From Bacteriovoracia bacterium (GTDB lineage Bacteria; Bdellovibrionota; Bacteriovoracia; Bacteriovoracales; Bacteriovoracaceae), in the NCBI GenBank assembly GCA_046570105.1, contig JBKHVI010000003.1, forward strand, positions 32,001 to 96,000: 64,000 nt of DNA, written 5' to 3'. The position numbers and the translations under genes are program-made. The notes beneath the pieces were generated by a model, which worked only from the letters and a program-made list of their open reading frames with translations, had not been told where the DNA came from and searched no databases. This document shows positions 3,315-18,857 of this stretch, piece after piece; within the stretch, counting starts at the first letter, position 1, and each line of letters begins with the position of its first letter.

Positions 3315-3344
3315 AAAAAGGCCCCGAAAGGGGCCTTCTTTTTT
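3315..3344. terminator. Bidirectional intrinsic terminator
   Basis: AAGGCCCC-gaaa-GGGGCCTT (3318-3337) flanked by A and T runs, between convergent genes. Confidence 0.85.
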
Positions 3345-3600
3345 AAAAGCCTAAAATATCTACGTAAGTTGTGCCCTTCGCCAGTGACGAAGAAGATTTC
3401 GCGCGCTGACCTTTGATCCAAATTTTCTTTTCATTAAAAAGATCTTTCAAGGCCGTGCGAGAGATCAATTTTAACTTCATATTCTCGTCCTGATCTCTCA
3501 GGGCATTTAATAAAGTATTGTCCATGCGCGACTCTGGATTCTCCAAAGTGAGGGCAATACGAAAAGAATTGGGAACAGTTGCTGGCATCGAATCACTCAT
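3343..3600 (-). CDS. Small hypothetical protein (possibly S4-like RNA-binding fold)
   Basis: 85-aa ORF 7 bp downstream of the preceding gene; RMD..L...SRTALKDLF...KIWIKG pattern is reminiscent of S4 domains. Confidence 0.55.
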   Translation of the reverse strand: MSDSMPATVPNSFRIALTLENPESRMDNTLLNALRDQDENMKLKLISRTALKDLFNEKKIWIKGQRAKSSSSLAKGTTYVDILGF

Positions 3601-3607
3601 GGTCTAC

Positions 3608-4084
3608 CTATTTACGTTTAAAAGTTACTACTGTGTTACGAACTTCATGGTCAGTTGATTCTTCATCCCAACCAATAATTGTCATTCTTGCTGTTACGCT
3701 TTCATCCGAAACTGACAGAACCTCAAAGTAAGCGATTCCTTCATCTTGCGAGATACGGTAGCTTTCGCCGACCGACCAAGTGCTAGGATTTTCAGATGAG
3801 TCGTCGTTATCCCAGTAATACCAGGTATCGGCAACCGTCAAATCATCCTTACCTACATATTCGCAGACTTCAGAGATCATCCCGCCGTCTTTGCTCCAGG
3901 TATAAAAGCCCACAACAGCGTCTTTACTATTAGTTAAATAGTTAACTTCAGTAAAACCATCCTTGACCCAATCAGCGATTGAATCCTCGAGAGACACTAA
4001 CTGAGAGCTTGAGCAAGCCTTCAGCTCACGCGCCATTGCACTGAACGAAAGTGTTAGCATTAAACCAAAAATGAGAGTTTTCAT
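3608..4084 (-). CDS. Secreted hypothetical protein
   Basis: AAGGAG RBS, signal peptide MKTLIFGLMLTLSFSAMA, acidic mature region. Confidence 0.75.
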   Translation of the reverse strand: MKTLIFGLMLTLSFSAMARELKACSSSQLVSLEDSIADWVKDGFTEVNYLTNSKDAVVGFYTWSKDGGMISEVCEYVGKDDLTVADTWYYWDNDDSSENPSTWSVGESYRISQDEGIAYFEVLSVSDESVTARMTIIGWDEESTDHEVRNTVVTFKRK

Positions 4085-4273: not shown

Positions 4274-5275
4274 CTAAGGATATTTCTCAACTAGTTGAGC
4301 TGCTAGCTCCTCCGCATCGGAGCGAATCCCACGCAAGAAGCGAGAACGAAAGTCTTTGTTCCTGGGGGAACCTAGATAATAGACATTAGGGTGTGGAAGT
4401 GGGGCCATGTCTGAAAAAGAAAATCCAGTTGTAAAAATGAGCACATCACATTTTATAGGTGAACCATTTTTAAAAAAAACCTCATCACTGGATATTCTCT
4501 CAATTATTCCACGACAAACAATAGGCTTATGTTTGATCAATTTATTTACTGACTCATCCATCAGAACTGGAAAGTTCAAACGAGGCCACAATCTCGCGAC
4601 GAGTGCTTCAATGCCTATGCTAAACCAGACAGGCAATTTATGAATCCATGCTGGTGAGAAACGAATGGGACTGCGATGACTGATTATAAAACTGACTTTG
4701 CCTTTCGTTTTTAATTCAATCTCTTCAATAATTTGTCCCGCCGATAAACGGCTTCCAACTATGAGTACTTTTTTGTTGGTGAAATCAAACTTGTCTGTAG
4801 GGTTATCCACGAAATGAAAGACCGGGATGCTCGCCTGACTAATGATATCTTTTGAAAGTGAATAAGCAGGATTATTCCAGTACCCGGTAGCAAAGACTAC
4901 TGCCCGTGCCTTGATTGATTCGTTATCTGTTTGCAAAATTAGTTCGTTGCTTTTGGAATCGATCGTTAATACGGATTTATTATATTCGACAGAGAGATGA
5001 TGCTTGCGCGCGTACTCGGCAAAATAGCCATGTATTTCTTGCGCTGATAATTGCCTTTTGCTTGGAAAAAGTTCGCGATCTTCACTATCAAGATGATTCA
5101 TCGCCCAGGGTGTCAGAATTTTAAGAAATGAAGGCATCGCTTTAAAAGAACTCGCCGGCCCCTCTGCCTTCTCTAGCACTCGATGAGGAATATTTCTGCG
5201 TAAAAGTTCGCGCGAGAGCTTAAGCCCAGCTGGACCAGCTCCCACGATAACAATCTTGGCAACATCATGTGGCAC
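4274..5275 (-). CDS. FAD/NAD(P)-dependent oxidoreductase (flavin monooxygenase-like)
   Basis: GAGPAG FAD motif, FATGY, second dinucleotide motif IVGSRLSA, FTTGF; 5 bp from the upstream radical SAM gene. Confidence 0.8.
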   Translation of the reverse strand: MPHDVAKIVIVGAGPAGLKLSRELLRRNIPHRVLEKAEGPASSFKAMPSFLKILTPWAMNHLDSEDRELFPSKRQLSAQEIHGYFAEYARKHHLSVEYNKSVLTIDSKSNELILQTDNESIKARAVVFATGYWNNPAYSLSKDIISQASIPVFHFVDNPTDKFDFTNKKVLIVGSRLSAGQIIEEIELKTKGKVSFIISHRSPIRFSPAWIHKLPVWFSIGIEALVARLWPRLNFPVLMDESVNKLIKHKPIVCRGIIERISSDEVFFKNGSPIKCDVLIFTTGFSFSDMAPLPHPNVYYLGSPRNKDFRSRFLRGIRSDAEELAAQLVEKYP

Positions 5276-5280: not shown

Positions 5281-6780
5281 TTAAGCAAAAGTCGTAAGCT
5301 TAACTCGCTCAGGTTCATTCACACCTTCAAGATCCAAGCGCTTATCTTTGAAGCGATGGATATTGTTATAAGCACAGCCAGGCATCAATCGACCATCAGG
5401 TAGAGCATAGTGGGTACAACATTTGCGAATACGTGAGACCTCAAAGTCAAACTCGTCCATAAACGCATGAATGAAAATCGCTTTAACTTTAGTTTCAGAA
5501 AGCTTCCAAAGCTGCTCTTGTCCAAGAGTGCCAGCGCCCTGATATTCGTTCAAAATCGACTTCAATGATTGCAGCACCTGCTCTGTATCAACCGTGACAC
5601 TTTGTGCACTCCAGAGATTATAGATGGCATCTTGAATGAGCTGTTGGGCTTTATCATCGGCTTCTAAGATTGCTCGATTGGTAAGCATGTTGAGATAAAC
5701 GGCTACGTCACCAAAGTGAGTCAAAGGAACGAATTTACCGTTGTCCAACTTCAAAACGTAACAAGCGGTATAACAAGAAGGATGCGAGCATGGGATAGGG
5801 AGAAAATCTTCTTTTTTGAGCCAATCAGTTTGCTTCTCAAGTAACTGATGAATATCCACTTGTGTAAGACGTCCCATTGGATCTTGTGGGAATGAGGTTC
5901 CGCCGGCACCAGTATACGCTGCTGGCTGAATAGTCACCGAGGTAACAAAGTCATGCTTAAGCGCAAAGTCGATAACTTCACCTAATTCATGATCGTTGAA
6001 GCCGCGGGCAACTGTTGGAACGAAGATCGTGGGAATATTATATTTCTCACACATCTCGAGCGTTTTCATTTTTGTTTCAAGTAATGAGGCACCACGAAGT
6101 TTTTTGTAATTCTCGTTGTTCAAAGAATCGAACTGCAATGAAAGATAAAGACCCATATCCTTAAAGCGTTTGGCAAATTCTTCGTCCTGAGCAATTTTAA
6201 TACCGTGAGATGAAACCAAAACACGCTTAATATCTTTTTGCTTACAGGCGTATTCCGCTAATTCAAAAAACTGTGGATGAAGTGTCGGCTCTCCACCCGA
6301 AAGTAACATCAACTCAAGACTTCCTTCTTTACGCAGAAGTCCGTCAGTGATGTTTTTAAATTCCTGCAAAGACATATTATAATTGTTCTGATTCCAAACA
6401 ATACAGATGGGGCACTTAAGATCACAGGCATTACTAATTTCAACAATGGGAGAACATGTATGCTGTTCATGTTCTTCACAGAGCCCACAATCATCAGGGC
6501 AGCCATCTTTAAAATGGGTAGAGAATTCTTTCGGCTTAGTTCCAGGTTTGGTGTAAGTCAGACTTTTAACCCAATAATCAACATCAGATGAGAGAAGTGC
6601 TTCAAACTCACCATGGTGAAAACAGCGTTTCGTAAGAATAACTTTATTGTCGCGAAAAATAATTTTGGCCTGAATAGTTTTGCGACATTTGGGGCAGATT
6701 GACTGTGTCGCTGAAAAGAATGAGCCTTTACGGTCTTCTTTATCCTTAAACGTATTAGTTCCGCAGCATCCTACATCCAT
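5281..6780 (-). CDS. Radical SAM protein, Tes/MJ0619 (tetraether synthase / GDGT-MAS)-like family
   Basis: C29xxC32-x20-C53xxH56, CPDDCGLCEEH, radical SAM motif CDLKCPIC, SGGEPTLHP, PCSHPSC and C-terminal KCCTHYALPDGRLMPGCAYN; AGGAGA RBS. Confidence 0.85.
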   Translation of the reverse strand: MDVGCCGTNTFKDKEDRKGSFFSATQSICPKCRKTIQAKIIFRDNKVILTKRCFHHGEFEALLSSDVDYWVKSLTYTKPGTKPKEFSTHFKDGCPDDCGLCEEHEQHTCSPIVEISNACDLKCPICIVWNQNNYNMSLQEFKNITDGLLRKEGSLELMLLSGGEPTLHPQFFELAEYACKQKDIKRVLVSSHGIKIAQDEEFAKRFKDMGLYLSLQFDSLNNENYKKLRGASLLETKMKTLEMCEKYNIPTIFVPTVARGFNDHELGEVIDFALKHDFVTSVTIQPAAYTGAGGTSFPQDPMGRLTQVDIHQLLEKQTDWLKKEDFLPIPCSHPSCYTACYVLKLDNGKFVPLTHFGDVAVYLNMLTNRAILEADDKAQQLIQDAIYNLWSAQSVTVDTEQVLQSLKSILNEYQGAGTLGQEQLWKLSETKVKAIFIHAFMDEFDFEVSRIRKCCTHYALPDGRLMPGCAYNNIHRFKDKRLDLEGVNEPERVKLTTFA

Positions 6781-6880
6781 AGATTCTCCTGGTGAGGAAA
6801 CACCCTACCATAAGGCCAATTTTAGATACAAGTTCCGAATAACCGAGCTTTTTTTTTGCTTTTTTGTCAGAATAGCAACC

Positions 6881-9049
6881 ATGTGGTCACGACTAAACTT
6901 TTTACGCTCACCGCTATCGGTGCTAGCGGTCTTTATAGGCTTTCTGGGCCTTAGTTTTTCTCAACTAAAAAATCTTCGTACCGAGCTACAAATTTATCAC
7001 CTGGACGATACACGCTTTAAAACGGCGCAAGATTTTCAGCGTGTCCGCAAAAGTTTTGCTGACCCTGCTTCGTTTCAATTGCACTGGTCGAAGCAAAATG
7101 GGCCTTTCACCATGGTTGAAGTATGCCAGATAGAAAAGCTTGTAAGAAATCTCAAAAAACTTACTCCTATCAAGGGAACTTTCATTGCCAGCATCAGCTC
7201 TCCGCTTGATCTGCGCACCTTTGAACTGACTGGCAGTCGCCTGTGGTTTCCCCGACTCCTCAGTGTGCAGTGCCAAAATCCCACAACGGAACCCGTCGAC
7301 CTCACTCCGCTCTATAATTTTCCGCTCTATCTTCAGCCGCTCACAACTGCTGCCATTCTTTCTTACAACCTGAAGCTCGCAACTGAATCCGACAAGGCAG
7401 AAAATGCTCAGCCTGACATTATCGGTGAAGCGTATGTAAAAGCTTTGCAACTACAAAAGGAAATACCAGGTCTTGAGCTTCACATTGCAGGCCGCGGGGC
7501 GACTCCTTGGCATATGCAAAAAATGATGATGAGTGATGCTCCGATTAATCTATTGGTCTTTCTCTTCATTTTGATTTTCTTTCGTCTTTTTCACGGGTCT
7601 TGGACAAGTGGCTTTCTGCTGACCGGCTCCCTTGTGACGACTCTCACCATTTCACTCGGTGTGATGGCTTATCTTGATATTCCAATCGACGCTCTCACTA
7701 ATACCCTATTTATCCTGGTTATTATTTCTGGAGTTGAAGACTACATCTTTCTCGTGGAAGAGAAGCGAAAAAATCCTCAGACGCAAGTAAACCAACCCTT
7801 TATTAAATTGCGAGCTCCCAGCTTTTTCACCTCTCTTACGACTATCATAGGGTTCGGAGTATTAGTTTTTTCTAGAATAGAAATCATCCAACGCTTTGGA
7901 GCGATCGCCGCTTTTTCCGCTTTGATTGAATGGTTTATTTTACTCTTCGCACTTCCCGCACTGCTGACACTTTTCCCAGCACTTGCTAACAAGTGGCTGC
8001 GAATAGACAAAGCTTGGGCACCTCGCTGGCTAGATAGTCTGGCGACATTGCGCCCCTCCTTCATAGTAAGTGTCATTATGGTTGCCATTTCTTTGGCAGG
8101 ATTTTTAGCATTCTCACACTTGAAATATAATGATTCTCCGAGGGAAAATTTCCCAATTCATCATCCTGCTCATAAAGCCTATGCTTTTTTAACACAGCAG
8201 TTCGGCTCTGAAGGATCACTGGAGATCGTCTTCCCGGCGAAGCATGCAAAACCTAAAAACTTTGAAGAAAAAATTTCTTCCATCTCTGGTGTCGTCAAAA
8301 TCCATTCACTGCCTGCTCTGTTTCATGCTATTCCACAAGACCTACCCCAAGAAGTCACTGAAGATATTAAACGCCATATTATGCAGACTGATCTCGCCCA
8401 ACATTATCAAAATGATGAGTGGGAAAGATGGGTCGTGTATGTTCAATCGATAGATCAAGAATCTTTGAAGAAAATGATTATTCAGATTCAAGCGATTTGT
8501 CAGGATACCTGTTTCCCGAGTGGCGAACTCGTTGTCTACGCAGACTTCGCAGATGAAGTCGCGAGCACACTTTTTAAAGGACTTGATCTCTCACTTTTAT
8601 TAGTGGGACTCACAGTCATCTTCTTGTGTTGGTGGAGAAAGATCAAACCCCTCTGGCCGGTACTCTTTAGTCTATTTTGGTGCCCACTAATGCTGTTGTT
8701 GGTGCTAGTGGTATTTAATGTTCCCATCAATCTGATGACTTGTTTAATAGGAGCCATTTTTGTGGGGCTCTCGGGTGATAACTCTATTCAGTATTTATTT
8801 GCCAGCAAGAATCTTGAGGATGGAGCGCTTGAGCGCTCACGTGCCACTGTTGTATTAACCATACTCTCAATGTGCTTATGTGGCTTCTTATGGGGATTTA
8901 CCCTTCGGCCGCTGCACACCGTAGGAACATTGCTGGCCGTCGGATTTGCTTTTATTCTGATTGGTGATCTGTGGGTATTACGAGGTTTACTTCATAAAGC
9001 GAATCGTGGGGCCAACACGCGCACCAAAGATTCAATTGAAACAAACTGA
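6881..9049 (+). CDS. MMPL/RND family transporter
   Basis: Two repeats of a periplasmic domain plus TM bundle, with GVEDYIF and GLSGDNSIQY motifs; ATG 6881 avoids overlap with the divergent gene. Confidence 0.85.
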   Translation: MWSRLNFLRSPLSVLAVFIGFLGLSFSQLKNLRTELQIYHLDDTRFKTAQDFQRVRKSFADPASFQLHWSKQNGPFTMVEVCQIEKLVRNLKKLTPIKGTFIASISSPLDLRTFELTGSRLWFPRLLSVQCQNPTTEPVDLTPLYNFPLYLQPLTTAAILSYNLKLATESDKAENAQPDIIGEAYVKALQLQKEIPGLELHIAGRGATPWHMQKMMMSDAPINLLVFLFILIFFRLFHGSWTSGFLLTGSLVTTLTISLGVMAYLDIPIDALTNTLFILVIISGVEDYIFLVEEKRKNPQTQVNQPFIKLRAPSFFTSLTTIIGFGVLVFSRIEIIQRFGAIAAFSALIEWFILLFALPALLTLFPALANKWLRIDKAWAPRWLDSLATLRPSFIVSVIMVAISLAGFLAFSHLKYNDSPRENFPIHHPAHKAYAFLTQQFGSEGSLEIVFPAKHAKPKNFEEKISSISGVVKIHSLPALFHAIPQDLPQEVTEDIKRHIMQTDLAQHYQNDEWERWVVYVQSIDQESLKKMIIQIQAICQDTCFPSGELVVYADFADEVASTLFKGLDLSLLLVGLTVIFLCWWRKIKPLWPVLFSLFWCPLMLLLVLVVFNVPINLMTCLIGAIFVGLSGDNSIQYLFASKNLEDGALERSRATVVLTILSMCLCGFLWGFTLRPLHTVGTLLAVGFAFILIGDLWVLRGLLHKANRGANTRTKDSIETN

Positions 9050-9372
9050 GCCAAGTCTTTGGGCGCTAAGTTATCCGCTGGATTCAACCCTGGAAGTAAG
9101 GGTGCTAAGCGTTTTTTTGCTTCATCACTTAAGATATCATTTTGAACGGCTTCTTCACGACTGAGTCCAGTGCGCTTAAGGAAATCAAAATCATTTTTTT
9201 CTAATTGAATATTGAGGTCACCTTCAAGTTGGAAAATGATATCCATAAAATCCAACGAGTCAGCACCCAGATCAGTCATGATCTTGGTATCAAGAGTCAA
9301 GTCTGCTTCTGATCGCGCCATACTACGGGCGACACAGGCAATAACATTTTTTTCAAGTTCTGAGCGATTCAT
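8992..9372 (-). CDS. Acyl carrier protein with internal insertion (126 aa)
   Basis: DLGADSLDFMDI phosphopantetheine site; GAGGA RBS; last gene of the fab operon. Confidence 0.85.
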   Translation of the reverse strand: MNRSELEKNVIACVARSMARSEADLTLDTKIMTDLGADSLDFMDIIFQLEGDLNIQLEKNDFDFLKRTGLSREEAVQNDILSDEAKKRLAPLLPGLNPADNLAPKDLAQFVSIESLVRVLAPRFAL

Positions 9373-9384: not shown

Positions 9385-10083
9385 TTACCATAAACTATAG
9401 CCACCATCGACTGGAAGTACTACTCCAGTTATCGCTGATGCATCATTAGATAACAAAAAACTGCAAGTTTTTGCAATCTCTTCAGCACGAATTAAGCGCC
9501 CCATCGGTACCATTTCAGCAGGATCAACTCCATTTTCTTCCTTAGATTGGCGCAACATTGCCGAATCAACGGGTCCTGGTAAAACGATATTGATTCGCAC
9601 ATTACGCTTGGCCATTTCGCTGGCAAGAGCTTTGGTTAATCCTTCTAGTCCTGCTTTAGTAGCAGAATACACCGCATGACCACGAGTCATACGATGAGCA
9701 GAAACACTTCCCATTAAGACAATACTGCCGGCACGTTTTTTAGAAAATAAAGGCAGAAGCAGTTGTAAAAACTTAGTGGGTGCAAGCATGTTGGTTTGAA
9801 ACATTTCATTCAAATGCTCTTCAGCTAATCCCATCAAAGGCCCACTGTGATGGATCCCCGTGCAATCAACATAACCGACCAAATCTTCTTGGCTCACTTT
9901 CATGATAAGATTTTTGCAAAGTTCAGGATTATTAACGTCCAATTCAAACCAATCAATGGGTACAGCTGGGTTTTTCTCGCGTCGAAAAGTTCCAATAACA
10001 TTAAAACCGCGACTCACTAAATCTTGCGCTACAGCGAGACCAATCGCGCCCGATGCACCAGTCACAAGGATAGTTTTTTTCAT
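9385..10083 (-). CDS. 3-oxoacyl-ACP reductase-like SDR
   Basis: TGASGAIG, GSVS, YSATK; ATGA overlap with fabF stop. Confidence 0.85.
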   Translation of the reverse strand: MKKTILVTGASGAIGLAVAQDLVSRGFNVIGTFRREKNPAVPIDWFELDVNNPELCKNLIMKVSQEDLVGYVDCTGIHHSGPLMGLAEEHLNEMFQTNMLAPTKFLQLLLPLFSKKRAGSIVLMGSVSAHRMTRGHAVYSATKAGLEGLTKALASEMAKRNVRINIVLPGPVDSAMLRQSKEENGVDPAEMVPMGRLIRAEEIAKTCSFLLSNDASAITGVVLPVDGGYSLW

Positions 10084-11294
10084 TCTGCACTTCCTAGGAT
10101 TAAACAAGAGTTATGGCCACCAAAGGCAAATGAGTTCTTAAGTACAATTGAAAAATGCCCCTTGCGTGGCTGACCTAGTACGTGATCAAGCTGGCATGAC
10201 GGATCAATCTCCGTGGTGTTAATCGTCGGATGTAAACTCTGCTGCTTCATACATAGAAGAGCACCCACTGTTTCAAGTGCCCCACCCGCAGCAATTAAAT
10301 GGCCTGTCATAGATTTGGTAGCAAAAACAGGAACACTCATTGCTCGGACACCTAACAACGTTTGGATGGCCTTCGTTTCCATCACATCGTTTTTTGGTGT
10401 TGATGTTCCATGTGCATTCACAGCACTAATATCATTCGCCGTGATCCGTGCATCAGCTAATGCATGTTTCATCGCTCGCAGTGCGCCTTCTCCGTCTGGA
10501 TGAGGATCACTGGGACTATATGCATCCATACTGTGGCCATGGCCTAGAATGAATCCTTGAATGTCAGCACCTCGCTTTTTGGCATTCTCTTCACGCTCTA
10601 ACACCATGAAAGCTGCTCCCTCACCAAGCACAAAACCATCACGATTTTTATCAAAAGGCCTAGAAGCTTTTGTAGGTTCATCATTACGTGCACTCAGCGC
10701 ACCTAATAGACAAAATCCACCCAGTCCCATGGGATTCACCATAGAATCTGTCCCTCCGGCAACAACCACATCTACCTCGCCCGAACGTAAGAGCTCGAGG
10801 GCTGTTCCTATCGCATCAGTACTCGCCACACACGCAGAGAGATGAAGTCGCGGAGGTGAGTGCAAGGAGAATTCGTGAGAGATCAAGTGAACCACTCGTT
10901 CTGCAGGATAATTTAGAAAAGCGAATTTATCTTCATCTGTTACCGCCGGGTAACGGTTTTTTTGCCAATCAATTAAGTCCGGGACGTGAAAAAGTTCAAG
11001 ACCCAAACCTAAACTTAAAGCACATTTCTTAGGAGCATAATGTCCATTTAACTGCGCCATAGCCATCGCTTCTCGGGCAGCTAAAATGGCAAACGACATT
11101 TTCACATCACGCTGATCCAAGACGATGGCAGAATCATCGACTTCTCCGGCAATTTGGGTCTGGTACCCACTTGGATCAAAGCGAGTGATGCGTTTAATTC
11201 CCGACTCACCTTTTTGTAATGCCTGATAAAATGCTTCACAGCCAATACCATTTGGAGAAACAACTCCCATCCCTGTGACAGCGATGCGTTTCAT
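10080..11294 (-). CDS. fabF: Beta-ketoacyl-ACP synthase II (FabF-like)
   Basis: Cys-His-His triad in SACVAS, NAHGTST, KSMTGH; C-terminal NSFAFGGHN. Confidence 0.9.
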   Translation of the reverse strand: MKRIAVTGMGVVSPNGIGCEAFYQALQKGESGIKRITRFDPSGYQTQIAGEVDDSAIVLDQRDVKMSFAILAAREAMAMAQLNGHYAPKKCALSLGLGLELFHVPDLIDWQKNRYPAVTDEDKFAFLNYPAERVVHLISHEFSLHSPPRLHLSACVASTDAIGTALELLRSGEVDVVVAGGTDSMVNPMGLGGFCLLGALSARNDEPTKASRPFDKNRDGFVLGEGAAFMVLEREENAKKRGADIQGFILGHGHSMDAYSPSDPHPDGEGALRAMKHALADARITANDISAVNAHGTSTPKNDVMETKAIQTLLGVRAMSVPVFATKSMTGHLIAAGGALETVGALLCMKQQSLHPTINTTEIDPSCQLDHVLGQPRKGHFSIVLKNSFAFGGHNSCLILGSAE

Positions 11295-12145
11295 AAAGTC
11301 GCTCCCATCGAAAAATGGTAGCGATAGTAATCATTTTTATAAGAAAAATGGATGACTTCTTTTTTCAGACGTTTCTGTTGAAGTGTATAAAGATCTTGCA
11401 CTGGCCCCAGATGTTGATCAATCTCAGTTTTAAAGCCGATCTCTTGAACTCCACCTGGTGGATGATATTGCATTTCAATTGGACTAACCAATCTGCAGTT
11501 CTGGTGGGTACCCTTACGTGCTAAAAGCCACATGCCTCCACAGTCAGGAGTTAAGACATTTTCAGGAAGACCCATCTTGCGGTTATAATTTTTTACCAAC
11601 GGATTTTGCTGATGAGTCGCCGCTCCCACGAGGGCATAGTCTACCCGGCCTCGACGCAAATCATGCATGGCTGCTGCCAACGCCTGGCCCCACTGATAGC
11701 GATCAGGATATGTCACGAGATAAGCTTCTTTGAGGCCGTAGTTATGAGATAGATGAAAGGCGGCCATATTGGGTAGACACTTAAATGTTGTCAGTGGATT
11801 AAGCGAAGGCATCGCTTTGGTCACAAAGTTCTCTTGTGAAAACTCTCCTTCAATTTGAGATTTCTCACCAAGAATACGAAGCTCTCGTTCTTCAAATGGC
11901 AGAACACCTACACACAAATAAAGTCCGGTACGCTGATTTCGTGTTTCTTGATCAAGTGGATACTGCTCAAGCACCTGGTGACAGGCTTCCATCGCAAGCA
12001 TATCCATCTTTGACATGAATTTAAGATTTTTGGGTTGCACTAAACAGCGACGTACATCAAGACTCACTTCTTGATTCGCACCACCTTGCAAGATGTCGGG
12101 CCCCACAAAAGATGAGGCTAGGAGAACTATCTCAGAATTGGACAC
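11291..12145 (-). CDS. Truncated ketosynthase-like protein (chain-length-factor-like, probably non-catalytic)
   Basis: KS N-terminal motifs KFMSKMD, RTGLYL, LKCLPNMAAFHLS-like (TFKCLPNMAAFHLS), GRVDYALVGA; no AC active-site motif and no HGTST; GTG 12145 is a tentative start. Confidence 0.75.
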   Translation of the reverse strand: MSNSEIVLLASSFVGPDILQGGANQEVSLDVRRCLVQPKNLKFMSKMDMLAMEACHQVLEQYPLDQETRNQRTGLYLCVGVLPFEERELRILGEKSQIEGEFSQENFVTKAMPSLNPLTTFKCLPNMAAFHLSHNYGLKEAYLVTYPDRYQWGQALAAAMHDLRRGRVDYALVGAATHQQNPLVKNYNRKMGLPENVLTPDCGGMWLLARKGTHQNCRLVSPIEMQYHPPGGVQEIGFKTEIDQHLGPVQDLYTLQQKRLKKEVIHFSYKNDYYRYHFSMGATL

Positions 12146-12606
12146 GGCTGAAGCTCCCGGCTCCAAATTTTATAAATCTGCAGACGCTGTGCTGTTAGCG
12201 CATTGGACTCCACTTCTAATAGAGTCATCATCAATCTCCCCTGAACTCGAATCTCATCCCCACAACGTGCTTCCACACTCAGCATAGCTGTCTCATCAAT
12301 GAGAGAATCAATTTTGGCAAAATAATCAAGTGCATCGCCTGGCCGACTCGGAATCTTGAATTTCATTTTATCAACAGTAGAAAGCACTGCCCTTCTGACG
12401 GGGCGAGAGGCATCTTGATTATGAGTTGTTTCCAATAAAAATCCTGCCACTTGTGCCAGCCCCTCTATAATCAGCGCACCGGGGAAAATTGGAATATCGG
12501 GAAAATGATCGTGGAGGACTTCGTCAGTCAAAGTCACGCACTTGCGAGCTTTAATTGTTTCACCTAATTTAAGCTCTTTAATGACATCAAAAAGAAAATA
12601 TCTCAT
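12127..12606 (-). CDS. 3-hydroxyacyl-ACP dehydratase (FabZ/FabA-like)
   Basis: DHFPDIPIFPGALIIEGLAQ hotdog catalytic His/Glu motif. Confidence 0.9.
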   Translation of the reverse strand: MRYFLFDVIKELKLGETIKARKCVTLTDEVLHDHFPDIPIFPGALIIEGLAQVAGFLLETTHNQDASRPVRRAVLSTVDKMKFKIPSRPGDALDYFAKIDSLIDETAMLSVEARCGDEIRVQGRLMMTLLEVESNALTAQRLQIYKIWSRELQPCPILR

Positions 12607-13298
12607 AGGGCCCCATCGGCGACGACTGACTCGCCAGTTATATACGTATTATAGGTAAGCATTCCATGCACTAGCTCTGCCACTTCATTTGGTTTCATAT
12701 ATCTGCCGAGCGAACAGTGTTTTAAATATTTATCTTTCAAACCTCGTGGAAGTTGCTGCGATACTTTCCCTTCAACAATTCCCATACAAAGTTGGTTCAC
12801 CAGAATTCCATGCTCTCCCAACTCGTGGGCGGCAGATTCCACAAGACCTTTCAGTGAGGCTTGGCATTGCGAATAAAAAACCGGAGCGGTTTGAGTCTTC
12901 ACTCCATCGAGAGTATTAAGAAAAAGTATTTGTCCTTTTTCATTCAAAAGCCGCTTTGCTTCTTTAATCAGTAGAAAGGGAGCTTCCACTCTTATTTTGT
13001 AAAGCTCATGCATAAACTCTGGGGTTGTTTCTTCCGCGGTTTTAAAAGCAGGATAATCACTTTTGAGAAGTTGCTTAAAATCAATTTGAGCGGCGTAAAC
13101 GATGGCATCATGGCCCGCTTTCAAATCCCAAGGTTTCAAAAGATTAAGTTCAAATCCTTTGGCACCGAGTGCCTCGAGATTTCTTGCTTCTTCGCGATTG
13201 CGACAAAATGAAAAGGCGACTTCGTGGTGCTCTAAGCGCAAATGCTTAACCAATTCACGGCCAATTTCTCCTGTGCCCCCAATAACAAGTATTTTCAC
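12603..13298 (-). CDS. Atypical SDR (FabG-like, YxxxK lysine lost)
   Basis: GGTGEIG; YSQCQ in place of YxxxK; YITGESVVADG. Confidence 0.8.
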   Translation of the reverse strand: MKILVIGGTGEIGRELVKHLRLEHHEVAFSFCRNREEARNLEALGAKGFELNLLKPWDLKAGHDAIVYAAQIDFKQLLKSDYPAFKTAEETTPEFMHELYKIRVEAPFLLIKEAKRLLNEKGQILFLNTLDGVKTQTAPVFYSQCQASLKGLVESAAHELGEHGILVNQLCMGIVEGKVSQQLPRGLKDKYLKHCSLGRYMKPNEVAELVHGMLTYNTYITGESVVADGAL

Positions 13299-14023
13299 TA
13301 AAAACCTCCATCCATCAAAACGGTGGAGCCAGTCATATAGCTATTCTTTTCTGAGATCATAAAAGCAGCGAATTTTGCGACTTCATCAAATTCGCCCACT
13401 CTCCTAAGTGCCACATGGTTTTCATAATCTTTCACCATATTGTCAGGAAGATTACGTGCAACCCCTTCTTTGAGCAGTCCAGGTGCCAAGTTCAATACTC
13501 TCACTCCATAGCGACCCACTTCTTTTGCAAGTGTAGCTGTAAAGCCATGCAGAGCCGCTTTGCTAGTTGCATAGTGCACGGGAGCGGCCAGCATTTTCTC
13601 TCCCGCTAGAGAGCCGATATTGAGCACGACACCTTTTTTACGACGAATCATGGGTGGTAAAAATACTTGCGTCACATGAAAAAGACTCTTGGTGTTGCCA
13701 TAAACGACTCGATCCCAGTCTTGTTCATCCTGTAGTGGAAAAGGCATCGCCTGAGAAACGCCGGCATTGTTCACTAAAATATCAATAGTCACATTCTTCT
13801 CATCCAAGTTTTTTTTGAGAGTTTCCATATCCGAACGCTTGAGCGCGTCGGCACGAAAATACTCACCACAACCCATCTGGCGTTGTGTTTCCTGCGCTCC
13901 AGCTTCATCGCTTAGATACGTGAAGAAGACGTTTGCTCCCTGCCTTTTAAATTCCAGACAGAAAGCGCGCCCTAAACCTTTTGAGCCACCTGTCACCAAT
14001 ATGTTTTTTCCTTGCAACAACAT
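13298..14023 (-). CDS. fabG: 3-oxoacyl-ACP reductase
   Basis: TGGSKGLG, NNAG, NIGS, YATSK. Confidence 0.85.
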   Translation of the reverse strand: MLLQGKNILVTGGSKGLGRAFCLEFKRQGANVFFTYLSDEAGAQETQRQMGCGEYFRADALKRSDMETLKKNLDEKNVTIDILVNNAGVSQAMPFPLQDEQDWDRVVYGNTKSLFHVTQVFLPPMIRRKKGVVLNIGSLAGEKMLAAPVHYATSKAALHGFTATLAKEVGRYGVRVLNLAPGLLKEGVARNLPDNMVKDYENHVALRRVGEFDEVAKFAAFMISEKNSYMTGSTVLMDGGF

Positions 14024-14785
14024 TTAAGCTCCCACCACATGCAGGCCACCATCAACAAACTGCACAGTACCGGTGACATGCTTTGAGAGCTCACTTGCGA
14101 GATAAACAGCTGTAAGTCCTACATCGTTGCCATTCGTATTTTGGCGCAGTGGAGCTTTCTCTTTGGCCATCAAGTAATGGGCATCAAATCCCTCTACACC
14201 CATCGCCGACATCGTTCTGACGGGTCCAGCAGAAATGGCATTTACTCTTACTCCTTGTGGTCCAAGTTCATGTGCCAAGTAACGCACACTACTCTCTAGT
14301 GCGGCTTTCGCCATTCCCATCATGCCATAGCCTGGTATCACGCGCTCACTGCCGATATTAGTCAGCGCCAGAAGACTTGCTCCCGGATTTAGGTAAGGCT
14401 GTACAAGTTGAGCTAAACGGACAAACGAAAAGGCACTGACTTCTAATGTTTCTTGCAACCCCTTGAGACTGGTGCCCATCAGTCCGCTGGCCAACTCTGA
14501 CGGCGGAGCAAATGCCATGGAATGCACGACAATATCTATTTTTCCCCACGCCTGAAGCGAAGAAGTTAAATTCTTCCAATGATTCTCATCGCGCACATCT
14601 AAAAGTTGGCAAAAACTTGCTGACAATTTTTCTGCCAACGGAACAGCTCTCTTCTCACTACTAGCAATTCCATACGTGAGTGCAATCGATGCGCCTTGGG
14701 CATGGAGACTTTCTGCGATCGACCAGGCCAGGCTTCGATCATTGGCCAATCCAAGAATCAAGGCCTTTTTATTTTGCACTAGCAT
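14024..14785 (-). CDS. fabI: Enoyl-ACP reductase
   Basis: GLANDRSLAWSIA, HSMAFAP, YGMMGMAK, ISAGPVRT; ATG 14785 with AAGGA upstream. Confidence 0.9.
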   Translation of the reverse strand: MLVQNKKALILGLANDRSLAWSIAESLHAQGASIALTYGIASSEKRAVPLAEKLSASFCQLLDVRDENHWKNLTSSLQAWGKIDIVVHSMAFAPPSELASGLMGTSLKGLQETLEVSAFSFVRLAQLVQPYLNPGASLLALTNIGSERVIPGYGMMGMAKAALESSVRYLAHELGPQGVRVNAISAGPVRTMSAMGVEGFDAHYLMAKEKAPLRQNTNGNDVGLTAVYLASELSKHVTGTVQFVDGGLHVVGA

Positions 14786-14814
14786 TTTCTTTCCTTGTTG
14801 CGGATGATCGATCC

Positions 14815-15771
14815 ATGTCCAAAAACCTTCTTTCACGCTGGTTCGAAGTTTATCAAGAACTCGGTCAGCCCATTGGAATTCATACTTTTCGCGTTGATAA
14901 GCGCGACGGCCAAATTGAGCACCAAGAACACTCACATATCGAGTGGGATGGTTTCAGTCTGGCGGTCTATAAGCTTCGCCAATTAGGATGGGTCATTCAA
15001 CCCCCACGTCGGCTAAAATCATTTTCCCTTTCTTTTTTAGCTAAAGTGAAAGCCTTTTTTCATTATTTAATTTGGGCGCGAGTGAGAGATGTAAGATGGA
15101 AAAAATTTGATGCACAGCGTACTGGTCATAACCCTCCTCAAATTCATGTATTTGAACAAGAAATGACAGAAAAATGGCTTAGAGATTTAGCACAACAAAA
15201 TCTATCACCTAATGCTTGGCTGCTTCACCGTCTGAACAAGCTCACTGCACCGTTAATTCACAGTTCAGAGGGTATTTGGTGGATTCCGGTCGACTATCGT
15301 CCCTACTCAGACTTTTCTTGGGATGAACCTAATGTCGTGTCTCATATAGCTGTATCAATCAACACGTCGCAAAATCCAAGATTGATAGAAACTTTTATTC
15401 AGAAGAACTTAATAGATGGTGCACCTTGGGCGGCCTGGAAATGGATGCAATTGATTGCTAAATTTGGGAAAACAACAATGAAAGGCATCCTGCAATCACA
15501 GCTCAAAAAAAATCGCTGGTGCGGCACAATGACTTATTTGGGACGCTGGCCGAATCGTTTTGCGACTGCTCCAGTGGACACACCCTATCGGCTAGTAGGT
15601 GCACCGCCACCGATGCTGGGACACCCTATCTCGATGGGCGTGAGTCTTATGTGCGATCAACTCTGTGTTGCCTTTACCAGTCATTGTTCCCTTTTTTCTG
15701 AAACTGAATCGCAAATGTTCTTTCATGATTTTTTAGATGAAGTATCAAATGGAATGAAAGGACAAGTATGA
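14815..15771 (+). CDS. Putative acyltransferase (condensation/CAT-like fold)
   Basis: HIEWDG matches HxxxDG; PVDYR..N and TYLGRW segments typical of this fold; start uncertain. Confidence 0.6.
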   Translation: MSKNLLSRWFEVYQELGQPIGIHTFRVDKRDGQIEHQEHSHIEWDGFSLAVYKLRQLGWVIQPPRRLKSFSLSFLAKVKAFFHYLIWARVRDVRWKKFDAQRTGHNPPQIHVFEQEMTEKWLRDLAQQNLSPNAWLLHRLNKLTAPLIHSSEGIWWIPVDYRPYSDFSWDEPNVVSHIAVSINTSQNPRLIETFIQKNLIDGAPWAAWKWMQLIAKFGKTTMKGILQSQLKKNRWCGTMTYLGRWPNRFATAPVDTPYRLVGAPPPMLGHPISMGVSLMCDQLCVAFTSHCSLFSETESQMFFHDFLDEVSNGMKGQV

Positions 15772-16814
15772 GTAAATTTAAATTCATTCTCTCATTTATA
15801 TTTTTTATCGCACTGACTGCTTGTGGAATTTTTGCAGCAGCGATGCAAACAGAGCAGAAAAATTTTAGCTTTGACTTGATTGCCAGTCTTCCTTGGACTG
15901 TTGTCTCTGCATTGATAATTTCTTCCATCTGCATTTATCTAGTTGATATCCTCCGCTTCTTCATTTTCTCTCATATGATTGGAGTACGACTCCAGTTTCT
16001 TCATGCGCTAGAAGCAGCCATCGTAAATTTATTTTTTGGATGGGTAACACCAGGGGCTGCCATGGGTGCACCGGCGGCTGTTTATACTTTAGGCAAGAGA
16101 GGTATCCCGTGGGATGCCTCATTAATTATCTGTTTTGGAAAATCACTAACAGGTTTTGGAACAATTTTATTATTAGCATTTGTTATGATTGCCATGGGTC
16201 TGGGCCCACAAATTGATAATATTTTTATTTATGGGATCTTGTGGAGCGCATCTTTTATTGCCTTCTTTTTTATCGCTCTGCCCATTGTAGGTAGCTTTTA
16301 TTCGGCGTCGACTCACCGATCGTTAGATCGTATTGAACAGAAACTTTTTTCCAAAAATCCTAAGATCAAGCTTCGTGCGAACAAGATATTTAAAGTACTA
16401 AAAGATATGATTGAACGTCTGCGGTTGTTACATAACCAAAGAAAGTTTCTATTTCTCATCGCGCTTGTTTCACAATTACTTTATTTCGCAGCTTTCATTG
16501 CACCCGCCGTTATCGTTTGTCATTATTTCGGAGGAGAGATTAGCAAGGCCATACCCCACTCACTCATTTACACTGCCCTTGCCTATTCTGCGCCGACCCC
16601 TGGTGGAGCTGGTATCTCTGAAGCATCCTCAGTCATTTTCTTTAATACAATTGTGCCAGCGATGAGCGCGGCTTATGTCGGAGTCATCTTCCGAGGATTT
16701 ACTTTCTATTTCCAAATTCTTATGGGGATACTTTATTTCCTTTTTTTTGGTGGGGGGTCTGCCATTCTTAATAGTAAAAATGCATTAGCTGGGAAATCAC
16801 ATGAGCCCAGTTGA
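15768..16814 (+). CDS. Lysylphosphatidylglycerol synthase TM-domain / flippase-like protein (UPF0104)
   Basis: Multi-TM protein with FGWVTPGAAMG, PTPGGAGISE, FRGFTFY motifs. Confidence 0.8.
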   Translation: MSKFKFILSFIFFIALTACGIFAAAMQTEQKNFSFDLIASLPWTVVSALIISSICIYLVDILRFFIFSHMIGVRLQFLHALEAAIVNLFFGWVTPGAAMGAPAAVYTLGKRGIPWDASLIICFGKSLTGFGTILLLAFVMIAMGLGPQIDNIFIYGILWSASFIAFFFIALPIVGSFYSASTHRSLDRIEQKLFSKNPKIKLRANKIFKVLKDMIERLRLLHNQRKFLFLIALVSQLLYFAAFIAPAVIVCHYFGGEISKAIPHSLIYTALAYSAPTPGGAGISEASSVIFFNTIVPAMSAAYVGVIFRGFTFYFQILMGILYFLFFGGGSAILNSKNALAGKSHEPS

Positions 16815-17461
16815 ATGTAAACTATTTAGATTTTTTTGACCTTAAACTGATTAAGGAACTGAGAAACAAAATCAAAAGAAAAGAATCACATTTCAAACCT
16901 ATCGAAGCCAAATTTGGCTTCAACCTTCCACTAAGTTTATTAAACGGTATTGAAATTCGAAAAAACTTTCCAGAAATCGTTTCGTTTGCTGAAACGAATA
17001 TCAAGGAATTAGTTGAACGCGAAGTAGGGACGCCAATCAACCTGATGAGAGATAATCTGCGCTCAATTCGTATCCAGCGCTATACTTCTCCCAAAGAGGG
17101 TTTCCTCTGGCATATTGATGGAGCCGACTACACTGTCTTTATCACCTTAAGTAACACTCTCAAAGGTGGAACAGAGTACATCTCTTTTAAACGCAGTTTG
17201 CTGCTAAAACCCTTGGTGTATTTCTATCCTTTTCTCGTGCTATTTAATCGATGCTCCTGGGCCATTCGTCCCTTCGCTCCACGAAGGATGCTGGGCGAAC
17301 CAGGTGATCTTATTCTGTTACAAGGAGGAAAATCGGCCCATAGAACTTATTGTGAGAGTGAGAGCGGCGAGAGACAGATTCTGGCCATAAGCTTTGATCG
17401 AGTGACAAAACCTAAAAACCCTATCTGGGATTTTATTGCGCAAAAGCTTGTGCACCAGTAG
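16811..17461 (+). CDS. 2OG-Fe(II) oxygenase
   Basis: WHID (HxD), KGGT, GDLILL, distal H (SAHRT) and Arg (ERQIL); TTG start overlaps the upstream stop. Confidence 0.7.
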   Translation: MNVNYLDFFDLKLIKELRNKIKRKESHFKPIEAKFGFNLPLSLLNGIEIRKNFPEIVSFAETNIKELVEREVGTPINLMRDNLRSIRIQRYTSPKEGFLWHIDGADYTVFITLSNTLKGGTEYISFKRSLLLKPLVYFYPFLVLFNRCSWAIRPFAPRRMLGEPGDLILLQGGKSAHRTYCESESGERQILAISFDRVTKPKNPIWDFIAQKLVHQ

Positions 17462-18857
17462 ATTTATCTTTAGACACTTTGCTGACATCTTTCGGTACCT
17501 CATTGCCTGCACCGAAATAGACAGGCACGATGCCGCGACGAACTTTGTACATATAATAAAGATTCGACAGCAGATGGTAGTGCTTTAATTTATACTTCCC
17601 TCTCCAAAGTCGAAGTAAAATTGATCGCAGAGAATAGAAGCGACGAAGCGCTCGCCAATAGCCACGCTGAATCTCATCCGCCGACATATGGGGATGCTTA
17701 AAGACCACATAAGACTCTCGAAAATGGCTCAAATCTTTATCGACGATCATTCCGCTATCAAATACTTTCTTTCCGAGAGGAGTCTTAGGATAAGGCGTAT
17801 AAAGAAAGAATTCAGCAATAGACACACCCATCTTCTCTAACCATTCAACAGTCTCATCAAAAGTTTCCTGAGTATCCTCTGGAAATCCGAAAACAATCAA
17901 TGCATGGACAGCAATTCCACTTGCATGAATTTTCTGAATAGCTTTTTCAAAATCGCTAACACGATTAAACCCCTTAGCGACTTGATTCAAATTCTTTTGC
18001 GAGAGCGATTCAAAACCGACGGCAACAAAAACACAGCCGGCCTCTTTCGCAAGCTGTAATAATTCTGGATCTTTGGCAATGTTGACTGTGCACTGTGTTC
18101 CCCAGCCCACCTTAAGATCTTTCATCGCTCGAAAGAGTTCTTTAGAATAGACGACGTCTTCCATTAGATTATCGTCAACGAATGAAAGCTGTCGCGACTT
18201 ACTGGCCTTAATATCTCTTACGACATCGGCAACTGGACGTAAGCGATAGCGCTTTTGATAAAACTCAATGATCGAACAATATTCACAAACGAAAGGACAT
18301 CCGCGAGTTGCCTGGACAGGTAGCACGGCCATGCGACTTTTGTCTGCCAGGTCATAGCGAGGCACCGGAAGATCTTCGAGGGGAAAAGGTTTGTCCTGTT
18401 GGTAGCTTTTTTTGAGTTGCCCATGCTCTATATCGTGAAGCATCTGAAGCCACACTCCTTCCGCTTCACCAACACAATAGGCATCGACATAATCTTCAAT
18501 TAATTCCGGGTGCATGGTAGGAAGGAAGCCTCCCATGATGACAATCTTTCCTCGTTTCTTAAACTCTTTGGCTATCTCTTGAGCGCGTTTGAGCTGCATA
18601 ACCTGGGCATGAATCCCTATGACATCCGCATCTGTGTTAAAATCGACATCTTGGAAATATTCTTCAATCTTTTCTACTTTGATATGACTGGGTGTCATCG
18701 CTGCTAAAATAAGCAAACCCAACTTCTCCACGTTGACTGTCGTCAGACGATTCCACCATCCCTTGGATTGAACGAGTCTGCCCTTGTCGTCATAATGGGC
18801 ACTGTGAATAAACAGTACCTTTTTGATTTTAGGATGAGCTGTCACAGGTTGATTCAT
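17433..18857 (-). CDS. Cobalamin-binding radical SAM protein (BchE/HpnP/Grs superfamily)
   Basis: N-terminal B12-binding domain (LGLLILAAMTP, IMGGFLPT, VGEAE), TRGCPFVCEYC, FVDDN, GFES, TPYPKTPL. Confidence 0.9.
   Translation of the reverse strand: MNQPVTAHPKIKKVLFIHSAHYDDKGRLVQSKGWWNRLTTVNVEKLGLLILAAMTPSHIKVEKIEEYFQDVDFNTDADVIGIHAQVMQLKRAQEIAKEFKKRGKIVIMGGFLPTMHPELIEDYVDAYCVGEAEGVWLQMLHDIEHGQLKKSYQQDKPFPLEDLPVPRYDLADKSRMAVLPVQATRGCPFVCEYCSIIEFYQKRYRLRPVADVVRDIKASKSRQLSFVDDNLMEDVVYSKELFRAMKDLKVGWGTQCTVNIAKDPELLQLAKEAGCVFVAVGFESLSQKNLNQVAKGFNRVSDFEKAIQKIHASGIAVHALIVFGFPEDTQETFDETVEWLEKMGVSIAEFFLYTPYPKTPLGKKVFDSGMIVDKDLSHFRESYVVFKHPHMSADEIQRGYWRALRRFYSLRSILLRLWRGKYKLKHYHLLSNLYYMYKVRRGIVPVYFGAGNEVPKDVSKVSKDKSTGAQAFAQ

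Follow-up and report, generated by a model that had tools for sequence, protein, structure and literature searches.

TesL is a Tes-like radical S-adenosylmethionine (SAM) enzyme of 499 residues, encoded at 5281..6780 on the minus strand of a 64,000-nucleotide stretch of Bacteriovoracia bacterium DNA (GenBank assembly GCA_046570105.1, contig JBKHVI010000003.1, positions 32,001 to 96,000; hereafter the window, whose own numbering is used throughout). TesL belongs to the GDGT-MAS superfamily, where it falls into a third well-supported bacterial clade that is neither Tes nor TrsS. It is not a Tes orthologue, and the Tes label is too narrow for it. The TesL clade shows a genetic link with a dedicated fatty-acid synthase (FAS)-like system of type II. 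In this genome, the TesL cluster is an accessory island; it is an orphan cluster of lipid genes that is horizontally mobile.

The TesL gene is real and intact, and its metal-site motifs are far beyond chance. An earlier note, made from the sequence alone, had described this open reading frame (ORF) and its motifs. The frame, which begins with ATG, proved exact in its coordinates and strand, and every motif was found at its given position in the translation. The protein carries a rubredoxin-like iron site (C29-x2-C32-x20-C53-x2-H56), an N-terminal auxiliary [4Fe-4S] site (C94-x3-C98-x2-C101-x2-H104, written CxxxCGLCxxH in the note), the radical SAM cluster (C119-x3-C123-x2-C126) and a set of C-terminal motifs, consisting of HPSC ending in C336, CC at 454–455, then HY..PDGR, and finally C469-AYN. 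Two Pfam families were matched above their gathering scores and in the order typical of the superfamily: Zn_ribbon_HMPTM (PF23545) at residues 22–65 (E = 2.3e-17; 62.7 bits, cut-off 27) and Radical_SAM (PF04055) at residues 113–273 (E = 1.3e-23; 84.5 bits, cut-off 29.5). TesL is thus composed of a rubredoxin-like ribbon, an N-terminal Cys3His [4Fe-4S] site, a radical SAM core and a C-terminal cluster domain.

The best match in the PDB (phmmer) was GDGT-MAS (7TOL/7TOM; E = 4.7e-70), aligned in two stretches covering TesL residues 23–335 and 325–478; the identity between the two proteins is 29–34%. MJ0619, the GDGT-MAS of Methanocaldococcus jannaschii, has a C9X2C12X20C33X2H36 ribbon, an N-terminal site formed by C73, C77, C80 and a His, and the SAM-contact residues Arg210 and Gln268 (Lloyd et al., 2022, PMC9433317). 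The ribbon spacing of TesL equals that of MJ0619, and its N-terminal site likewise consists of three Cys and a His, with C94, C98, C101 and H104 aligning with the GCPxDCGLCxxH stretch of 7TOL. In the same alignment, Arg229 and Gln285 of TesL fall on the two SAM-contact residues. An AlphaFold2 model based on a 126-sequence alignment reached a predicted local distance difference test score (pLDDT) of 91.9 and a predicted template modelling score (pTM) of 0.91, with lower confidence in a helical region at residues 359–431. Foldseek matched this model to 7TOL/7TOM with E = 6.5e-43 and a template modelling (TM) score of 0.76–0.77. VIA-align superimposed 428 residues on 7TOM (Z = 48.0; root-mean-square deviation 3.0 Å; model residues 18–486), while the next entry after GDGT-MAS, MoaA, reached a Z of only 20.2. 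The same domain order and the same fold, found by Pfam, PDB search, Foldseek and VIA-align, bear out the claim of the earlier note that TesL is a bacterial homologue of GDGT-MAS/Tes. The alignment with MJ0619 that the note had proposed confirms that TesL resembles GDGT-MAS/Tes (MJ0619, NF045702) in all Cys/His ligand positions of the clusters and over the whole chain. It also places Y458 of TesL, within CCTHY, on Tyr459 of MJ0619.

The assignment to Tes itself did not hold. TesL scored 303.2 bits against the NCBIfam model for Tes (NF045702; cut-off 450) and 295.2 bits against that for TrsS (NF045646; cut-off 490), below the threshold in both cases. An exhaustive search of 1.84 billion cluster representatives retrieved 490 relatives at E ≤ 1e-30, and the NCBIfam cut-offs were applied to the 103 full-length sequences among the best 150. 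Sixteen of these passed the Tes cut-off, 12 that of TrsS and 75 neither; the last group includes every representative scoring more than 250 bits to TesL, that is, all its nearest relatives. In a 108-row tree, the Tes-passing and TrsS-passing sequences each lay on one side of a branch (support 99), and TesL fell into a separate 44-row clade (support 99), with the TrsS-passing representatives forming a clade of their own beside Tes and away from TesL. The Tes group in these trees is defined by the NCBIfam cut-off and not by the tree. A more careful 51-row tree (LG+G4 without mixture; bootstrap not fully settled) gave the same three-way split with support values of 100/98 to 100/100. Holding TesL and Tes together in this tree lowered the log-likelihood by 246 and was rejected by the approximately unbiased (AU) test (p = 7.3e-6). 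The earlier note had made its assignment depend on membership of the MJ0619/Tes clade. Because the score lies below the cut-off (303 versus 450 bits), the clade is separate at 99–100% support and the AU test rejects the joint grouping, TesL lies outside that clade.

TrsS, a radical SAM (seleno)protein that appears in a table of PMC13188914, is similar to TesL in that both belong to the same superfamily, share the same N-terminal and core motifs and give similar model scores. It differs in forming its own clade and in having a Met, in 13 of 13 rows, at the position of MJ0619 Met439. Source names of the close TesL homologues point to Bdellovibrionota metagenome-assembled genomes (MAGs), and Sorangium proteins are 46–47% identical to TesL. 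In public sources, close relatives carry the label '7,8-dihydro-6-hydroxymethylpterin dimethyltransferase'.

Two observations concern the wider superfamily. A homologue on a Thaumarchaeota MAG contig (L026) groups with bacterial sequences that have no FAS context, as sister to P0127 (support 100), and not with the Tes-passing group. Several longer members (P0172, P0214, P0218, P0263, P0257 and P0270) are fusions of a Tes-like module to LGT, class I methyltransferase, MobA-like NTP transferase, DUF5714 or STAND NTPase domains; in P0172, the partner is the phosphatidylglycerol-using LGT domain.

All three clades retain the metal ligands, but they differ at one position of the C-terminal cluster. 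In MJ0619, Met439 is the labile fourth ligand of this cluster, and it is completely conserved in 1000 archaeal homologues (PMC9433317). This position aligns to His438 in TesL. It is occupied by His in 42 of the 44 TesL-clade members, by Met in 15 of 18 Tes-clade rows (16 of which pass the Tes cut-off) and by Met in all 13 TrsS-clade rows (12 of which pass the TrsS cut-off). Judged from the aligned sequences, the labile Met ligand of Tes is absent from TesL, and the replacement of Met by His marks the TesL clade. The three Cys residues C336, C454 and C469, the putative ligands of the C-terminal cluster, are invariant throughout (TesL clade 44/44, Tes 18/18, TrsS 13/13). Within the TesL clade, the N-terminal Cys3His site and the ribbon Cys residues are conserved in 44 of 44 members each, and the ribbon His in 37 of 44.

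The FAS-like genes of the window lie within 8 kb on the minus strand, and several of them overlap by 1 to 40 bases. They encode an acyl carrier protein (ACP; 8992..9372), a FabG-like ketoreductase of the short-chain dehydrogenase/reductase (SDR) type (9385..10107; 167.5 bits to the FabG subfamily model, cut-off 222), a FabF-like ketosynthase (KS; 10080..11294), a short KS-like partner (11291..12166), a FabZ-like 3-hydroxyacyl-ACP dehydratase (DH; 12127..12606), a divergent SDR reductase conserved in related clusters (12603..13298), a second FabG-like ketoreductase (13298..14023) and a FabI-like enoyl-ACP reductase (ER; 14024..14935). The DH was recognised by Pfam, NCBIfam and PDB searches, and the last two SDRs by Pfam and NCBIfam. 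The ER matched adh_short_C2 with E = 3.9e-71 and the NCBIfam FabI model with 270 bits (cut-off 337). The KS reached 393 bits against NCBIfam fabF (cut-off 494) and E = 7.6e-87 against FabF in the PDB, and its Cys-His-His residues were identified by eye in the translation. Its partner, a 291-residue chain-length-factor-like protein whose gene overlaps that of the KS by 4 bases, matched Pfam ketoacyl-synt (E = 5.1e-7). It had no match in the PDB and no significant BLASTP alignment to the KS, and it has no Cys at the KS active-site position when lined up by eye, without gaps, from the LRxGxVD motif that both proteins share. Homologues of this partner stand beside the KS in loci L008, L046, L086, L088 and L089. 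The ACP (126 residues; PP-binding E = 5.5e-8) carries a DSLD motif and a C-terminal extension of about 50 residues. Both features aligned in 8 of 8 cluster ACPs, which measure 126–139 residues (window, L086, L088, L089, L015, L025, L046 and L008) and whose extension has an L..LP motif and a hydrophobic tail. PDB matches of the window ACP span residues 2–69 only, so that the extension is not covered by solved ACPs.

To describe the gene neighbourhood across the family, 80 loci from species-representative genomes, found with a search pattern from a 12-sequence alignment, and 6 from metagenomes were searched with the window proteins (tblastn). A locus was labelled as FAS-type if it had a match at E ≤ 1e-5 to the KS, DH, KS-like protein or ACP, or to both the second FabG-like protein and the divergent SDR. 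The sequences were placed in a 172-row FastTree, with the fragment L066 left out; its support values deserve less trust than those of the careful tree, and the same split was seen in the 108- and 51-row trees. In the resulting 65-row TesL clade (support 98), 22 of the 25 locus sequences had FAS-type neighbours, two lay on short contigs, and one had none. This single locus, L087, is at a contig end, yet it contains genes for a B12-binding radical SAM enzyme, a protein with an HxxxDG motif and an ER. Outside the clade (63 loci), 54 had no such neighbours, eight were short, and one, from Paenibacillus, was labelled FAS-type through SDR matches only. The ACP that the earlier note had seen beside TesL does not lie there by chance but belongs to a dedicated FAS-like set that travels with the TesL clade across phyla (22/25 versus 1/63). 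The loci come from Acidobacteriota, Myxococcota, Planctomycetota, Burkholderiales, Bacillota, Actinomycetota and Riflebacteria, and homologues from Chloroflexota, Terriglobia, Bacteroidota, Fischerella and Paenibacillus fall outside the clade and have no FAS context.

The composition of the clusters changes with distance from TesL. In close relatives (63–79% identity), the TesL gene is directly followed by those for the B12 enzyme and the HxxxDG protein, with FabG, SDR, DH, KS-like, KS and ACP genes alongside. The next relatives (50–52%) come from Acidobacteriota (Pyrinomonadaceae, Thermoanaerobaculia) and a Myxococcota-type MAG and have the B12 enzyme, KS, DH and reductases; in two of these loci a flavoprotein, encoded next to TesL in the window, is also present. 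The FabG-like protein at 13298..14023 is the most widely conserved neighbour of TesL, with tblastn matches in 16 of the 80 species-representative loci, all of them closer relatives except Paenibacillus L040 and L058. Distant clade members, from Planctomycetaceae, Burkholderiales, Myxococcales, Syntrophomonadaceae, Acidimicrobiaceae and a Riflebacteria MAG, keep the KS or KS-like protein, DH, reductases and a long ACP. In these members, a second Tes-like paralogue of a different subclade often takes the place of the B12 enzyme (complete ORFs in L008, L010 and L025; a tblastn match ending at the contig end in L046), and the two enzymes look like alternatives.

Further genes vary among clade members, including those for class-III aminotransferases, nitroreductases, fatty-acid hydroxylases, additional radical SAM enzymes, LolA-like proteins and methyltransferases. 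Some of them recur, namely the aminotransferase in L010, L015 and L046, the nitroreductase in L088, L025 and L046, and the fatty-acid hydroxylase in L088 and L015; all three are absent from the window. These recurrent genes suggest that the chains of other members may bear amino or hydroxy substituents.

The TesL cluster is an accessory part of this genome. FAS genes were found elsewhere, with FabG and FabF on contig C16, a KS on C2 and a FabI-like gene on C4 whose product is 45% identical to the FabI-like protein of the window; given these housekeeping genes, the FAS set of the window is additional. TesL is present in one copy, and none of the 200 other sampled genomes of the phylum (166 of them at least 90% complete) had a match to it at E ≤ 1e-20. 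In a genome of the same genus (G178), the flanking genes for a SpoU methylase and a 1154-residue protein occur in the same relative order, as seen from protein synteny. The interval between them is about 12.8 kb in G178 and contains none of the window genes from 1404 to 19810, compared with about 18.6 kb here. DNA comparison of the window with G178 gave only two short matches. Base composition does not set the island apart. Part of the window DNA was detected in seven metagenome runs (soil, biofilm, wastewater and groundwater), one of which may be the source sample, with no RNA run among the matches. The 1154-residue ORF at the flank (20066–23530, minus strand) has no Pfam match and a 36%-identical homologue in G178; the AT skew is −0.24 at 20–22 kb.

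From the motifs, fold, clade placement, gene association and island status described above, we infer the substrate, the reaction type and the role of every accessory gene. TesL is probably a radical SAM enzyme that modifies lipid chains within a private FAS pathway, as homology and gene context suggest. That it forms a C–C bond, by analogy with GDGT-MAS, has in our judgement slightly less than an even chance, and an ACP-bound substrate is a more tentative proposal still. Complex prediction of TesL with the ACP, run with two alignments, gave scores of 0.00 and 0.00, which speak neither for binding nor against it. Coupling of fatty-acyl chains is plausible from homology and context, and for bacterial Tes homologues the fatty-acyl idea is already in print as a hypothesis (PMC8941075). 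The earlier note had seen no isoprenoid-ether genes nearby, which is correct within the window. A search of the genome, which is 87.8% complete, likewise revealed no gene of the PcrB/GGGPS family, so that an archaeal diether substrate is unlikely to exist here. Whereas Tes is found with archaeal isoprenoid-ether lipid genes, TesL is located on a bacterial accessory island with a private FAS, and its His438 stands where Tes, in a separate clade, has its labile Met439.

In GDGT-MAS, which was crystallised with E. coli phospholipids, Csp3–Csp3 bonds are formed via a C–S intermediate on the C-terminal cluster (PMC9433317). A pathway modelled on this enzyme would start with the private ACP, the KS and its Cys-less partner, DH, ketoreductases and ER building a saturated or partly reduced acyl chain. 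TesL would then reductively cleave SAM and abstract a hydrogen from an unactivated sp3 carbon of the chain, and its C-terminal [4Fe-4S] cluster, with His438 in place of the labile Met, would form the new C–C bond. The B12 radical SAM enzyme could add a methyl group or carry out a further rearrangement, the HxxxDG protein may pass the chain on to an acceptor molecule, and a transporter of the MMPL type might export the lipid to the envelope.

Several findings weigh against this pathway. The reaction type is carried over from a 29–34%-identical enzyme of another clade, and having His in place of Met may point to a different chemistry at the auxiliary cluster. Tyr459, which lies near the substrate terminus in MJ0619 (PMC9433317), has an equivalent in only 22 of the 44 TesL-clade members. 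In the window, TesL is outside the FAS transcription unit, with the divergent MMPL gene between them, and the B12 enzyme is encoded 10 kb from TesL, unlike in the close relatives. The wide variation in accessory genes also argues for a family of related products and probably not one compound. A much broader extension would be that the FAS-linked clade represents an undescribed bacterial lipid class, in which a chain on a long-tailed ACP is cross-linked, dimerised or cyclised at unactivated carbons by a His-ligated Tes-type cluster and then B12-alkylated, and that this is the real chemistry of many orphan 'ladderane-type' clusters in non-anammox phyla. We regard this as speculative and, taken as a whole, rather doubtful.

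Alternatively, TesL could be a functional equivalent of Tes that couples phospholipid tails into membrane-spanning lipids of the iso-diabolic-acid or branched glycerol dialkyl glycerol tetraether (brGDGT) type, with the FAS genes only supplying or adjusting precursors. The same fold and metal sites would fit this, as would the binding of bacterial phospholipids by GDGT-MAS (PMC9433317). Bacterial Tes homologues have indeed been proposed as brGDGT synthases, in a survey that counted 456 of them in 13,919 genomes and put forward fatty-acyl substrates (Zeng, 2022, PMC8941075) and in a Black Sea survey with 281 MAGs containing such homologues (PMC11868695); experimental confirmation is absent from the accessible parts of both. 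Moreover, the closest relatives beyond the Bdellovibrionota-like group are from Acidobacteriota (50–52%) and are accompanied by a B12 enzyme that could add methyl groups, and the Tes-like module of P0172 is fused to a domain that uses phosphatidylglycerol. However, TesL lies outside the Tes clade and below its cut-off. A bulk membrane lipid needs no dedicated ACP, KS with chain-length factor, DH, ketoreductase and ER, yet 22 of 25 clade loci have such a set, and the absence of the gene from 200 sampled genomes of the phylum argues that it has no core membrane function here. Homologues from Terriglobia and other Acidobacteriota, which are the best-known source of such lipids, fall into a different clade without FAS context, and Tes homologues occur in only 3 of 14 Acidobacteria that produce iso-diabolic acid (PMC13159169). 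We therefore consider a Tes-equivalent function unlikely and retain a role on a private acyl chain as the preferred reading.

Even on a private acyl chain, TesL might carry out radical chemistry other than coupling, such as sulfur insertion from the auxiliary cluster, desaturation or a hydroxylation-type functionalisation. GDGT-MAS passes through a C–S intermediate and, under SAM limitation, lets go of a lipid that contains sulfur (PMC9433317), and the Met-to-His change that is specific to the TesL clade affects the very cluster involved, where the His may serve as a ligand. The two or three Tes-like paralogues, or several radical SAM enzymes, in related clusters suggest a series of different radical steps. 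Against this, sulfur insertion is not known to be the end point for any member of the family, and the three C-terminal Cys residues and the overall architecture are unchanged. Met439 and Tyr459 are both dispensable in vitro in MJ0619, and its M439A variant is active, so the ligand change need not alter the chemistry (PMC9433317). A non-coupling reaction thus appears improbable to a similar degree as Tes-equivalent function. That TesL does not act on lipids at all, but is a cofactor or pterin methylase (as in the old HMPTM annotation of MJ0619), a TrsS-like protein or a peptide-modifying enzyme that happens to lie near lipid genes, is very improbable: the pterin dimethyltransferase name of close relatives, the nearness of the TrsS and Tes scores (295 and 303 bits) and the fusions to methyltransferase, MobA-like or STAND NTPase domains would speak for it, but Lloyd et al. 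were unable to corroborate the pterin role of MJ0619 (PMC9433317), TesL lies outside the TrsS clade, and the clade-wide FAS link in at least seven phylum-level groups is not explained by chance adjacency.

TesL would surface in BLAST screens of the kind used in the two surveys; one entry of the supplementary tree list in the Zeng paper is sce6491 of Sorangium cellulosum So ce 56. No Bdellovibrio or Bacteriovorax names were found in the searchable supplements of that study, of which one PDF was unreadable. The accessible text of the Zeng and Black Sea papers sets apart no FAS-linked clade, His ligand or gene cluster. In the literature searched, which mostly excluded subscription journals, we found no Tes-like enzyme in a KS/ACP cluster, no function assigned to any bacterial Tes homologue, and no description of the FAS-linked Tes-like clade or its His ligand. 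Mss of Thermotoga and Thermoanaerobacter, a radical SAM enzyme for which the coupling of two fatty-acyl tails has been demonstrated, is reported by its discoverers as not detectable as a Tes homologue by BLAST (PMC13159169). It provides a functional bacterial precedent for C–C coupling of ketoacyl lipids.

The cluster also recalls anammox Cluster I (KustE3603-3608), a set of ladderane candidate genes for a special ACP, a FabZ-like DH, a KS paired with a catalytically dead KS-type protein, a flavoprotein and a B12-dependent radical SAM enzyme (bioRxiv 10.64898/2026.05.19.726425). The window resembles it in the outline of its parts list, with an ACP, a FabZ-like DH, a KS and presumably inactive partner, a flavoprotein and a B12 enzyme; unlike the window, Cluster I as described in that text has no Tes-like enzyme. 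The B12 enzyme of the window is also unlike the ladderane type, scoring 93.5 bits against the 360-bit cut-off of TIGR04072, and the flavoprotein is of the Pyr_redox_3 type and not, as in anammox bacteria, of the phytoene-desaturase type. The DH and KS are nearer to ordinary FabZ and FabF than to the PDB entries that, judging by their molecule names, are presumably anammox amxFabZ and amxFabF. A link by sequence was rejected, as neither these presumed anammox proteins nor the ladderane B12 model show any specific closeness to the DH, KS, ACP and B12 enzyme of the window; the resemblance is one of parts list only. Under its rule, antiSMASH would presumably call the window cluster 'ladderane'. 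'Ladderane-type' antiSMASH clusters in non-anammox phyla are orphans (PMC9902471).

These findings bear on how bacterial Tes relatives are counted and interpreted. Among enzymes that join two inert carbons of lipids, Tes/GDGT-MAS is, to our knowledge, the only one understood in structural terms, and the use of its relatives by bacteria bears on brGDGT palaeoclimate proxies. In one large bacterial branch of the family, the enzyme does not work alone in the membrane but belongs to a portable biosynthetic cluster that brings its own machinery for building chains. Simple BLAST tallies of 'bacterial Tes homologues' lump together no fewer than three groups with different functions, and the His-for-Met exchange offers a sequence marker by which genome surveys can tell pathway enzymes from candidate synthases of the brGDGT type. 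The compact clusters of close relatives, of about 10 kb (TesL, B12 enzyme, HxxxDG protein and FAS genes), are expressible and offer a route to the product.

Among the remaining genes of the cluster, the B12-binding radical SAM enzyme (474 residues; 17433..18857, minus strand) matched Pfam Radical_SAM and, just under the cut-off, B12-binding (E = 4e-7; 30.3 bits, cut-off 32.1). Its best NCBIfam matches, HpnJ (107 bits), BchE (98) and rSAM_ladder_B12 (93.5), are all far below their cut-offs. Its gene adjoins TesL in L086, L087, L088, L089, L091, L005 and L006 and is present in L003 and L007. The HxxxDG protein (14815..15771, plus strand), with the motif invariant in 5 of 5 homologues, had no Pfam or NCBIfam match at E ≤ 1, and its profile retrieved nothing from the PDB at E ≤ 10. 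A word-indexed protein search returned only two proteins, and the AlphaFold2 model, built from five sequences, was poor (pLDDT 49.5). Its Atlas feature matches, at 0.94–0.96, are to clusters of which a minority carry AATase, PapA_C or WS_DGAT_C. As a lead only, it is a candidate acyltransferase of the CAT/WS-DGAT/PapA type that would off-load the chain. The HxxxDG gene follows that of the B12 enzyme in L086 and L087, where the two are separate and overlapping, and in L089 (11365–13650) they form a single frame of 761 residues.

The genes next to TesL are a flavoprotein and a transporter. The Pyr_redox_3 flavoprotein (333 residues; 4274..5275, minus strand; Pfam E = 7.5e-23) is encoded 5 bases downstream of TesL. 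Its best NCBIfam matches, ArsO and YpdA, are both below cut-off, its best PDB matches are flavin monooxygenases and the YpdA-family reductase Bdr, and no CxxC pair was seen by eye. Homologues occur in the TesL clusters L005, L006, L008 and L010. One idea is that it could donate electrons from NAD(P)H to the surface rubredoxin domain, or act as a chain oxidoreductase. Divergent from TesL, an MMPL/RND transporter of the HAE3 type (6869..9049, plus strand; Pfam MMPL and Sterol-sensing; NCBIfam HAE3 and HpnN-like below cut-off) has a weak homologue near TesL in L089 only and is a candidate product exporter.

Between the flavoprotein and a terminator-like site, two small ORFs of 158 and 85 residues (3343..4084, minus strand) have no Pfam match and no homologues in related loci (tblastn); they are possibly, though uncertainly, the tail of the TesL transcription unit. 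The site itself, at 3315–3340 between convergent genes, is a GC-rich hairpin of 11 perfect pairs with T-runs on either strand, resembling a bidirectional terminator, and is the clearest of its kind in the 18 kb scanned. The promoter and terminator scan as a whole was no richer than shuffled sequence (27 versus 28.4; 19 versus 16.1). On the plus strand, a flippase-like membrane protein (LPG_synthase_TM; 15768..16814; Pfam E = 6.8e-25; TIGR00374 85 bits, cut-off 43.2) and an ORF of 216 residues without a Pfam or NCBIfam match (16811..17461) are both without homologues in related loci. A histidine-kinase-type ATPase protein (18854..19810, minus strand; HATPase_c E = 1.7e-23), whose gene shares 4 bases with the beginning of the B12 gene, is a possible regulator, and a weak homologue of it (26% identity) is encoded beside the ACP in L086.

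Outside the cluster, 2725–3312 (plus strand) encodes a secreted-looking protein of 195 residues with four or five tandem units of about 35 residues (C..AYAGPFS.-ES..LC), for which the only family signal was a weak Pfam match (ANKLE2_3rd) over a sub-stretch. Three genes for trypsin-like serine proteases are located at 1783–2622, 53224–54096 and 54105–54974, two of them in tandem, and the window also contains genes for a non-specific endonuclease and M3/M28 peptidases. These protease, endonuclease and peptidase genes are consistent with a predatory or scavenging lifestyle.

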